This document shows positions 52,972-54,369 of a stretch of 64,000 bases of DNA, one piece after another. The notes beneath the pieces are model-generated. The model did no database searches, had not been told where the DNA came from, and worked only from the letters and a program-made list of their open reading frames with translations. Each line of letters opens with the position of its first letter. Positions within the stretch are counted from its first letter, which is position 1. This DNA comes from Candidatus Heimdallarchaeum endolithica (lineage in GTDB: Archaea; Asgardarchaeota; Heimdallarchaeia; Heimdallarchaeales; Heimdallarchaeaceae): positions 1,376,001 through 1,440,000 of the forward strand of contig CP084167.1 in NCBI GenBank assembly GCA_021513715.1, read 5' to 3'. The translations under genes and the position numbers were made by a program.

Positions 52972-53045
52972 TTAATCACATCCACAAATTTCCTATTTCA
53001 TTGCAGATAAGAACTATATAAAAATATTTAGATTTCGTTGAATTC

Positions 53046-53300
53046 TCAGAAAAATTTGTGCCCAGATAGGAAGGAAATCTTTCTCGATGCTTCAGAGGTC
53101 TGGTAATTGAGGTTATACCTCTTTTGGGGGTTCTGGCAGACTATAAGTCTGTGTTCTGGGGTTTAGAACTTTGTTAGGAGGTCATTCCTATAAAAAAGGG
53201 GGTGTTTAACCAAACTCATTCGCGCCCTACATGGAGGGATTGAGCATCGGTTACTCTTCCTATCTGGTTTACACTTCCCTTTTTTAGTTCTAACTCATCA
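53046..53300 (-). ncRNA. Candidate novel structured non-coding RNA (~250 nt)
   Basis: GC-richer non-coding island; perfect 12-bp helix 53062-53073/53256-53267; helix 53085-53091/53243-53249; 5-6 short internal hairpins; BRE/TATA upstream on the minus strand and a T-tract downstream. Strand inferred from the promoter. Confidence 0.65.
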
Positions 53301-53317
53301 AAGTATCCACAACATTA

Positions 53318-53334
53318 TTTATAAATCTTTTTCT
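53318..53334 (-). promoter_or_regulatory. Archaeal BRE + TATA promoter facing the structured element
   Basis: Minus strand reads AGAAAAAGA-TTTATAAA. Confidence 0.6.
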
Positions 53335-53350
53335 GATTGTAACCTACATT

Positions 53351-54369
53351 TGTTTACTCAATAGACTTGGGTTACACTTTTGGGTACTAGAGAAACATAG
53401 GGGTGATTCATAAATCTTTCTCCTGGGGTGAGGAAGTTAAGAGATTGGTGAGGACGACTAAAATTGTAGTAAGAGCGGTAGTAGGAGAGATCTGCGTTGC
53501 AGTATTTTAGACCTAATCTTTCCATCTCACGGATGATTGTTGGGTCCCATGTAGTCTTTCTACTTTTCCACATGTTTCGGGGTGAAAAACTCTAGCTCTG
53601 ATGTGTTTTATTCCTTCTGTTTGACACCAACGGGAGAAGGTACTTGTTCCTCCTCTAACGGAAGAGAAGAGTGCTCCATTGTCCGTGAGGATAGACTCGG
53701 GGTAACCGTACTCTTTTATTGCTTCCTCTAGTAGATTTATTATCTGCTCTTTTTTTGGTGCAAAAGGGTGGAATTTAGCTCCCAGACAGAATCGTGAGTG
53801 GTCGTCTATCAAGGTTATGAGATGGAGATGTTGTCCCTGTTCTTCTACCCAGAATGGTCCTTTCACATCTATTTGCCAGAGTTCGTTAGGTTTTTGACGT
53901 TCAAAACTCTTGTATCGAGGTCTCTTCCTCTTTTTTCTATTGACCCATAAAGGAAGACCTAACTCTTTTATTACTTTCGTCACTGTCGTCTGAGAGAGTG
54001 CTTTTCCTTCTCTCTTCAACAAATAAGCTATCTTCTCCACATTCATTCCTTGTTTTATTCTTAACTCCCTTATCCTCTCTTTTAACTCCTCATCCACTTT
54101 CCTGTGTATAGTTTTTGGTCTGGAGGATCTATCTTTCCACCAACCATTCTCCTTCAGGGTTCTCTCTGAACCTCTTCAACCACTTATACACAAACTTCCT
54201 ACTCACCATATACTTGTGAGCTATCTCTTTTATCTTCTCTCCTTCCAAAGCTTTTTTAACTACAATTTTTCTTAGTTTCTCCAGGTTACGTTCGGTCTTA
54301 TTCATATTTAATCACTTACCCACGTAACCCACTTCTATTTATTTGTTACCAATGTGAGTGGAGTATACA
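53351..54369 (-). mobile_element. IS481-family insertion sequence (1019 bp), decayed
   Basis: TGT...ACA ends with imperfect ~26-bp TIRs; 16-bp direct repeat GATTGTAACCTACATT at 53335-53350 and 54370-54385; rve-type transposase. Confidence 0.9.
53358..54305 (-). pseudogene. IS481-family transposase pseudogene (two frameshifts)
   Basis: ATG at 54305 begins an HTH (VSRKFVYKWLKRF), frameshift, core PNELWQIDVK/IDDHSR/LTDNG/GKVERLHGT, frameshift, YNFSRPHQSL...TP. Confidence 0.88.

Follow-up and report, generated by a model that had tools for sequence, protein, structure and literature searches.

The 64,000-nt stretch of Candidatus Heimdallarchaeum endolithica DNA analysed here (the window; contig CP084167.1 of assembly GCA_021513715.1, positions 1,376,001 to 1,440,000) contains, at positions 53,046 to 53,334 and upstream of the ribosomal protein gene rps30e, an uncatalogued structured RNA gene that is restricted to its family, lies on the minus strand and is oriented in the same sense as rps30e. 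The stem below a perfect 12-bp helix of this RNA is a canonical archaeal bulge-helix-bulge (BHB) motif of the hBHBh' type, which was overlooked in a preliminary description of the locus. The best explanation of the locus as a whole is a family-specific, stand-alone non-coding RNA (ncRNA) gene whose core is excised at the BHB and circularised, a reading to which we give a probability of about 0.7.

A BHB is defined as a 4-bp helix between two 3-nt bulges (PMC4090602). Read on the minus strand, the 5' side of the RNA runs from an outer helix through four nucleotides and AAA into the 12-bp helix (P1), and the 3' side leads from P1' through four nucleotides and a second AAA into the outer helix. 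Counts for the BHB and for sequence motifs refer throughout to 24 full-length homologues, and covariation to 25 aligned sequences. The parts of the motif and its predicted products are:

53275..53279, minus strand: outer BHB helix, 5' strand GGGAA, pairing with UUUUU at 53050-54 through two A-U and three G.U pairs
53271..53274, minus strand: central 4-bp BHB helix, 5' strand GUGU, with four of four pairs in 24 of 24 homologues
53268..53270, minus strand: BHB bulge 1, AAA in 24 of 24 homologues, with the predicted 5' cut between 53269 and 53268
53256..53267, minus strand: P1 (inner BHB helix), 5' strand, with 11-12 of 12 pairs in all homologues
53062..53073, minus strand: P1, 3' strand, with the same pairing evidence
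53058..53061, minus strand: central BHB helix, 3' strand GCAC, pairing with GUGU
53055..53057, minus strand: BHB bulge 2, AAA, 3 nt in 24 of 24 homologues, with the predicted 3' cut between 53056 and 53055
53050..53054, minus strand: oligo-U terminator tract, also the 3' strand of the outer BHB helix
53056..53268, minus strand: predicted excised RNA of 213 nt, probably circular, from the BHB geometry
Junction predicted from these cuts, minus strand: GGGCACAA joined to ACCAGAUAGG (GGGCACAA joined to ACCAGATAGG)

The exact 3-4-3 geometry, together with the near-complete inner helix, is found in every one of the 24 homologues, and the central helix takes five covarying combinations (CUGC/GCAG, GUGU/GCAC, AUGU/GCAU, CUGU/GCAG and CUAC/GUAG). 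Bulge 2 reads AAA in 21 homologues, UAA in two and AAC in one, and four metagenomic copies match the BHB pattern by inspection. The outer helix, which is 4-8 bp long, also covaries between genera (CAAGGAA/UUCCUUG, UGAA/UUCA, AAAG/CUUU and AAGGG/CCCUU).

The same arrangement occurs in an intron of a tRNA-Arg gene of this genome, which reads stem, cuuc, uaA, UCUC...GAGA, GAAG, CUa, stem, with each bulge on the 3' side of its central-helix strand and cutting after the second bulge nucleotide. The RNA shares this strand order on the minus strand only, and its cut positions were inferred from the geometry of the tRNA-Arg intron. Two proteins with an EndA domain (tRNA_int_endo; 213 and 197 aa) and an RtcB gene are present in the genome, and the presence of two separate EndA-domain proteins suggests a heteromeric endonuclease of broad specificity. 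The RtcB open reading frame (ORF; 993 aa, G000:C1:1674331-1677159), whose Pfam match is split into positions 1-50 and 45-426, probably contains an intein.

We propose that a precursor of ∼245 nt would begin ∼23 nt after a promoter comprising a transcription factor B recognition element (BRE) and a TATA box, and would end at the oligo-T tract. Its leader and trailer would pair to form the hBHBh' structure (outer helix, GUGU/GCAC, two AAA bulges and 12-bp inner helix), EndA would cut after the second nucleotide of each bulge, and RtcB would join the ends into a 213-nt ring in which the 7-nt junction loop GCACAAA closes the 12-bp helix. Segment 53268..53056 is probably excised and its product circularised, as far as can be judged from the geometry. 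Among the homologues the predicted excised length ranges from 213 to 290 nt (for example 254 nt in G002, 235 nt in G014 and 246 nt in G010), and in the largest genus the predicted cuts would join GGCAGAA to ACTGAACAGG. A rolling-circle ORF was also considered and rejected, given that 213 is divisible by 3 but the homologue lengths are not consistently so.

With nhmmer, three other genera were found to have diverged copies of the element upstream of rps30e and oriented like it. A covariance model (R1) built from six sequences detected the element, once in each, in 26 of 31 family genomes, representing all five genera and including all six high-quality genomes. The RNA region of the sister species, Ca. 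Heimdallarchaeum aukensis PM71, shows 99% identity. When 185,579 species genomes were scanned for a three-part motif, 26 matches resulted; the model confirmed 11, all of them in the Heimdall group, and the remaining 15, mostly bacterial, lacked such confirmation and are regarded as chance matches. Metagenome contigs scanned for this motif yielded four further copies. One genome carries a partial extra copy of the 3' end of the RNA gene (G021:C94:44093-44140, L021), ∼2.4 kb downstream.

Transcription would start from a promoter that belongs to the RNA itself, as the preliminary description had predicted for the minus strand, and this promoter is kept in the homologues. The features upstream of the predicted excised segment are:

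53327..53334, minus strand: BRE-like element AGAAAAAG, of the form aGAAAAAaG, directly upstream of the TATA box and kept in homologues
53318..53325, minus strand: TATA box TTTATAAA, with TTTAAATA or TTTATAAA at the matching position in all 24 homologues
53269..53294, minus strand: predicted 5' exon (leader), with its probable start at about G53294, 23 nt after the TATA box

The transcript start was placed near G53294 because the position of a GUUAG sequence, 22-23 nt after the TATA box, agrees between this genome and the genus labelled g4. T-rich tails are found downstream of the BHB motif in all homologues. The transcribed strand is the minus strand, given the conserved BRE and TATA box, the BHB strand order that is canonical there only, and the many G.U pairs: dozens of alignment cells hold G.U on the minus strand and would be A.C mismatches on the opposite strand, and therefore the minus strand fits and the plus strand does not. 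The U.G pair of the GCGUCG variant of helix P2 is likewise compatible with the minus strand only. Compared with shuffled sequences, the fold of the minus strand has z = -4.3 and that of the plus strand z = -2.5. The leader is poorly conserved between genera and the core highly conserved. Most of the 24 homologues show complementarity of leader to core (z ∼-2 to -5 against shuffles), and the leader (53275-53294; loci L054-L077) is directed at the P4 loop, the P5 flanks and the P5 strands, with segments that vary by lineage; this may reflect precursor folding or the timing of the cut. All g4 subgroups (loci L056-L076) have a further conserved motif, (A/T)TTTTGTCG-N2-TTTYAG, ∼45-50 nt before the TATA box in the interval between PAC2 gene and promoter; it might terminate the upstream gene or bind a regulator.

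Within the predicted ring the following elements were recognised by comparing homologues:

53243..53249, minus strand: P2, 5' strand CGAUGCU, with 99% of cells paired
53225..53238, minus strand: P3 hairpin CCCU..AGGG with a C-rich loop, four of four pairs changing on both sides
53192..53205, minus strand: M1, single-stranded C-rich ACACCCCCUUUUUU, which is GAACCCCC in relatives
53175..53190, minus strand: P5 hairpin with the invariant GACCUCCU (53183..53176), forming in all full-length homologues
53153..53161, minus strand: M2, invariant single-stranded CCCCAGAAC, with CCCCAGAA in 24 of 24
53137..53151, minus strand: P6 hairpin CAGACU-UAU-AGUCUG, with one to three hairpins here in relatives
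53126..53136, minus strand: M3, conserved single-stranded CCAGAACCCCC
53085..53091, minus strand: P2, 3' strand AGCAUCG, with the same pairing evidence as its 5' strand

Every feature that the preliminary description listed was found in place on direct reading of the sequence, and the covariation that it proposed to look for across related Heimdallarchaeia is present. The 12-bp and 7-bp helices and two of the hairpins, TAGGA and CCCT, take part in it. Across the model, pairing reaches 91% of cells, compared with 35-45% when partners are slid, and 23 of the 38 modelled pairs change on both sides; none of 500 shuffles reached the observed values. The slid-partner controls are fairer than the shuffles because the alignment was fitted to the model. 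Folds of individual sequences recover a common set in which P1, P2, P3 and P5 are joined by one to three CAGAC..GUCUG-type hairpins, and it is these folds, not the fitted alignment, that back the central hairpins, for which just 60-68% of cells are paired on a rough alignment.

The perfect 12-bp helix reported earlier (53062-73/53256-67) is present and covaries, six of its ten modelled pairs changing on both sides. The adjoining CGATGCT/AGCATCG helix (53085-91/53243-49) covaries as well, with the compensatory forms CGAUGUU/AACAUCG and CGAAGUU/AACUUCG, but it does not stack directly on the 12-bp helix as had been supposed, being separated from it by an internal loop; in three genera a hairpin with a GAAA tetraloop is inserted between P1 and P2. 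All five short hairpins described previously occur in the sequence. Three of them, TAGGA-N6-TCCTA (53175-90), CCCT-N6-AGGG (53225-38) and CAGACT-ATA-AGTCTG (53137-51), are conserved, whereas GAGGT-TAT-ACCTC (53109-21) and GTTCT-N7-AGAAC (53153-69) are confined to this genus. P3 is missing in one g4 subgroup. The CAGACT hairpin recurs in the folds of each lineage with stem sequences that differ among them (CCAGAC/GUCUGG, CCAAAC/GUUUGG and CCAGCA/UGCUGG), and the P5 stem varies between genera in sequence and register. GACCUCCU, in or at the P5 loop, is unchanged in 24 of 24 homologues and in the four metagenomic copies, so that both it and CCCCAGAA are invariant although the adjacent stems covary. 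CAGAACC is constant in every copy, and runs of C repeatedly follow GAAC. We tentatively add a long-range GGG/CCC pairing next to P2 and, equally tentatively, a long-range GGUUG/CAACC pairing that would compete with a local GGUUGAACC hairpin. The mature RNA would then be a rod (P1, internal loop and P2) opening into a multi-hairpin domain that may keep the invariant C-rich GAACCCCC, the hairpin-borne GACCUCCU, CCCCAGAAC and CCAGAACCCCC unpaired.

A second helix crossing the first, between 53277-93 and two interior segments (53191-200, 10 bp; 53163-70, 8 bp), had suggested a large pseudoknot or a two-state switch. The complementarity exists, but the 8-bp half is not conserved, and of the 10-bp half the homologues retain no more than a general AAAGGG/CCCUUU complementarity. 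Segment 53277-93 belongs to the leader, outside the predicted excised product, and the pairing is therefore possible in the precursor only, which argues against a pseudoknot or switch in the mature RNA.

The RNA was not assigned to any catalogued family. Across 53022-53357 there is no ORF of at least 30 aa in any frame, and the G+C content of the element is 0.41-0.45 compared with 0.23-0.36 for most flanking sequence. The Rfam comparison that the preliminary description had proposed, made for the whole window at gathering thresholds, matched no known family; for the locus only, at E <= 10, it returned noise matches alone and none to a C/D family. A scan of the window for tRNA and transfer-messenger RNA (aragorn) found none, and aragorn found neither in head-to-tail dimers of all excised sequences, which are a way to expose a permuted tRNA-like part. 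The signal recognition particle (SRP) RNA and RNase P RNA of this genome (114.8 and 179.7 bits) and its 5S candidate are located away from the locus, where none of the covariance models of these three families has a match. The earlier statements that the element is not tRNA, SRP RNA or RNase P RNA, and that it is an undescribed structured ncRNA of Asgard (Heimdall-group) archaea, both hold, the latter on the empty Rfam result, the covarying helices and the family-restricted homologues. The paper on Ca. H. endolithica makes no mention of non-coding RNAs (PMC8813620).

Other features of the genome were noted as well. Its single 5S rRNA match, outside the window (G000:C1 ∼2829700-2830000, minus strand; locus L109 ∼1400-1700), scores 31 bits, below the Rfam threshold of 38, and has a mismatched helix I. 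The DNA directly downstream resembles a good 5S 5' half (GCGGCCAUAGCGG...CAUUCCGAACC), and the gene therefore looks circularly permuted, with its 3' part before its 5' part; a 9-bp inverted repeat, CUAAUGGCA...UGCCAUUAG, flanks it on both sides. The SRP RNA gene (G000:C1:2550484-2550791) has complementary 5' and 3' flanks of ∼17 nt (AAGAUGCUGGACUAAU with GAUUGGUUCAGCAGUCUU) that resemble a processing stem, and a canonical BHB was not seen there. Three CCCCAGAAC sites spaced 75 nt apart were considered as an array of clustered regularly interspaced short palindromic repeats (CRISPR), a reading that was rejected; they lie in a coding 75-nt tandem repeat at G000:C1:1817526-1817770 that specifies a proline-rich protein repeat with a PEPKPTP-type motif.

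The composition of the excised RNA, in which C exceeds G, and its unpaired segments offer a lead to its function. The 3' end of the organism's own 16S rRNA reads GAUCACCUCCU, and ACCUCCU, its 3'-terminal core, is common to GACCUCCU. In this genome GGAGG, GGGGG and GGGGU are enriched 5- to 20-fold directly upstream of start codons. The C-rich segments might bind G-rich, Shine-Dalgarno-like RNA or a poly(C)-binding protein, the RNA acting as a decoy or translation regulator; we put this forward tentatively and regard it as doubtful. A more specific version, in which the gene would serve solely to produce a stable ring by way of the tRNA-splicing enzymes, and the ring, with its ACCUCCU and several C-runs, would be a multivalent look-alike of the 16S 3' end that titrates Shine-Dalgarno-type leaders or a factor binding the 16S 3' end, is unlikely to a greater degree. 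In this genus only, UUUGGGGG directly after the 16S 3' end pairs with CCCCCAAA.

Several results weigh against an excised, circular RNA with such a role. The outer helix is weak in this genome (two A-U and three G.U pairs), and in most g4 genomes it has a mismatch adjoining the bulge or one base pair off, for which reason we call the g4 motifs 'relaxed'. The predicted g4 junction is not in assembled metagenome contigs, which are mainly DNA and hence uninformative on this point. Model R1 detected no homologue in 16 genomes of three sister families, and lax thresholds applied to five sister-family genomes gave weak, unconvincing matches only; since the RNA is not detected in those families, its function is not universal. 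Perfect complements of the GACCUCCUAA loop lie mostly within coding sequence and point to no specific target, and duplexes with the organism's own 16S and 23S rRNA do not surpass the expectation for C-rich probes. Binding by the C-rich segments is the weakest step of the proposal because no specific target was found.

Of the other explanations, one would keep the RNA linear, with the A-rich bulges serving as a protein-binding or tertiary-contact motif and with leader and trailer retained. It would account for an outer helix that is short or mismatched in many homologues and for a leader complementary to internal segments, a property relevant only if the leader is retained. We nevertheless consider it unlikely, given that the 3-4-3 geometry and canonical strand order persist in 24 of 24 homologues despite a covarying central helix, that the leader diverges between genera far more than the core, and that the genome has the EndA and RtcB genes. 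In tRNAs and pre-rRNA spacers, BHB splicing ligates the flanks, and the inner part could by analogy be a mere intron of a functional product made of leader and trailer. Here, however, the flanks are short (∼26 nt and ∼6 nt), are not conserved between genera and contain no recognisable motif, whereas all invariant sequence and all covarying helices are in the inner part, which makes this explanation highly improbable.

The gene neighbourhood bears on the remaining readings. In genera g1, g2 and g3 and in part of g4, rps30e lies downstream of the RNA and has the same orientation, an arrangement that would suit a cis-acting leader, attenuator or switch for rps30e-elp3, as the preliminary description had offered. 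Such a role has very little probability: the oligo-T tract closes the RNA unit, rps30e has its own conserved TATA box ∼40 nt before the start codon, and in most g4 genomes unrelated genes intervene, the gap being 2-20 kb where both are on one contig. It is on account of this separate promoter and these intervening genes that the attenuator reading fails, and a ribosomal-protein leader was rejected on the same footing, its position in the 5' untranslated region not being constant and a promoter lying between the RNA and rps30e. Gene content is more constant on the upstream side of the RNA, where SBP_bac_5 and PAC2-family genes lie, neither of which hints at a function. The intervening genes of g4 are variable and in G014 (locus L035) include a TnpB-like ORF. 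The suggestion of a long box C/D-class RNA came from UGAUGA (53295-53300) and CUGA (53046-53049), which resemble the C box (RUGAUGA) and D box (CUGA) of box C/D small RNAs (sRNAs) and bracket the element, with nop5 and fibrillarin genes a few kilobases away. The homologues in the other four genera lack both boxes, a third Heimdallarchaeum species has CAGA in place of CUGA, UGAUGA is upstream of the predicted start and CUGA past the terminator tract; with no Rfam C/D match in addition, we rejected a box C/D RNA as exceedingly improbable. The chance that the element is a miniature inverted-repeat transposable element (MITE) or what remains of the neighbouring IS481-type element, with the 12-bp inverted repeat as its boundary and the insertion sequence ∼85 bp away, is close to nil. 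The check for dispersed copies set out earlier found none, the element occurring once in the 3.33-Mb genome and hence not being a MITE, and the 'inverted repeat' covaries as an RNA helix. The IS481-type element (53351-54369, its transposase frame split) has ∼25 genomic copies of 86-100% identity as well as shorter fragments; this copy ends at 53351, 26 bp upstream of the RNA TATA box, and is not at this site in the sister species with its 99%-identical RNA.

The excised, circular ncRNA that we favour has partial counterparts in known systems. Its hBHBh' geometry and strand order are identical to those of archaeal tRNA introns, as checked on the tRNA-Arg intron of this genome. Excised archaeal introns can be stable and functional, and the tRNA-Trp intron carries a box C/D sRNA. 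Unlike in tRNA introns, the flanks here are not tRNA (aragorn) and the 'intron' is the only conserved part; it would also be longer, at 213-290 nt, than the published tRNA intron range of 11-129 nt (PMC4090602). The leader-trailer stem with a BHB is likewise shared with pre-16S and pre-23S stems, in which EndA and RtcB excise and circularise the pre-rRNAs, and circular rRNA transcripts have been reported in Asgard archaea; in the minimum-energy fold of the organism's own 16S processing stem a clear canonical BHB was not seen. The circles formed there are intermediates of rRNA or, in some lineages, mature 23S rRNA in circular form, whereas ours would be a 213-290-nt orphan RNA with its own promoter and no apparent re-opening site.

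The SRP RNA of Thermoproteus, which Plagens and colleagues reportedly described in eLife in 2015 as being cut at a BHB by the tRNA-splicing endonuclease and ligated into a functional circle, is similar in being a structured RNA, neither rRNA nor tRNA, from a gene of its own. It is, however, a universal RNA with a permuted gene whose topology is restored by circularisation; the permuted RNA is reported to regain function in this way (PMC4731332). The RNA here has no match among known families and shows no obvious permutation, with its two ends already pairing as P1, and the genome has a canonical SRP RNA elsewhere. In Firmicutes, RsaE/RoxS (UCCC-motif RNAs of Staphylococcus) use unpaired C-rich motifs to pair with G-rich Shine-Dalgarno regions. 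Several such motifs in loops and linkers are common to both, a functional analogy and not homology, the bacterial RNAs being linear and ∼100 nt long.

Known substrates of BHB cutting and RtcB ligation are tRNA introns, precursors of rRNA and a single permuted SRP RNA, whereas a promoter-driven gene with a 213-290-nt orphan RNA as its only conserved BHB product is not in Rfam and was not found in the literature searched. The locus shows the extent to which structured RNA is overlooked by annotation in these AT-rich genomes, and by way of the predicted junction the claim can be tested directly in any metatranscriptome containing these organisms. Few known archaea are as closely related to eukaryotes as the Heimdall group of Asgard archaea; in eukaryotes the same enzyme pair makes tRNA-intron circles, and the RNA described here provides a concrete case for asking whether archaea use purpose-built circular RNAs as regulators. 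If the unlikely reading as a look-alike of the 16S 3' end proved true, a circular-RNA 'sponge' would control translation in archaeal relatives of eukaryotes.

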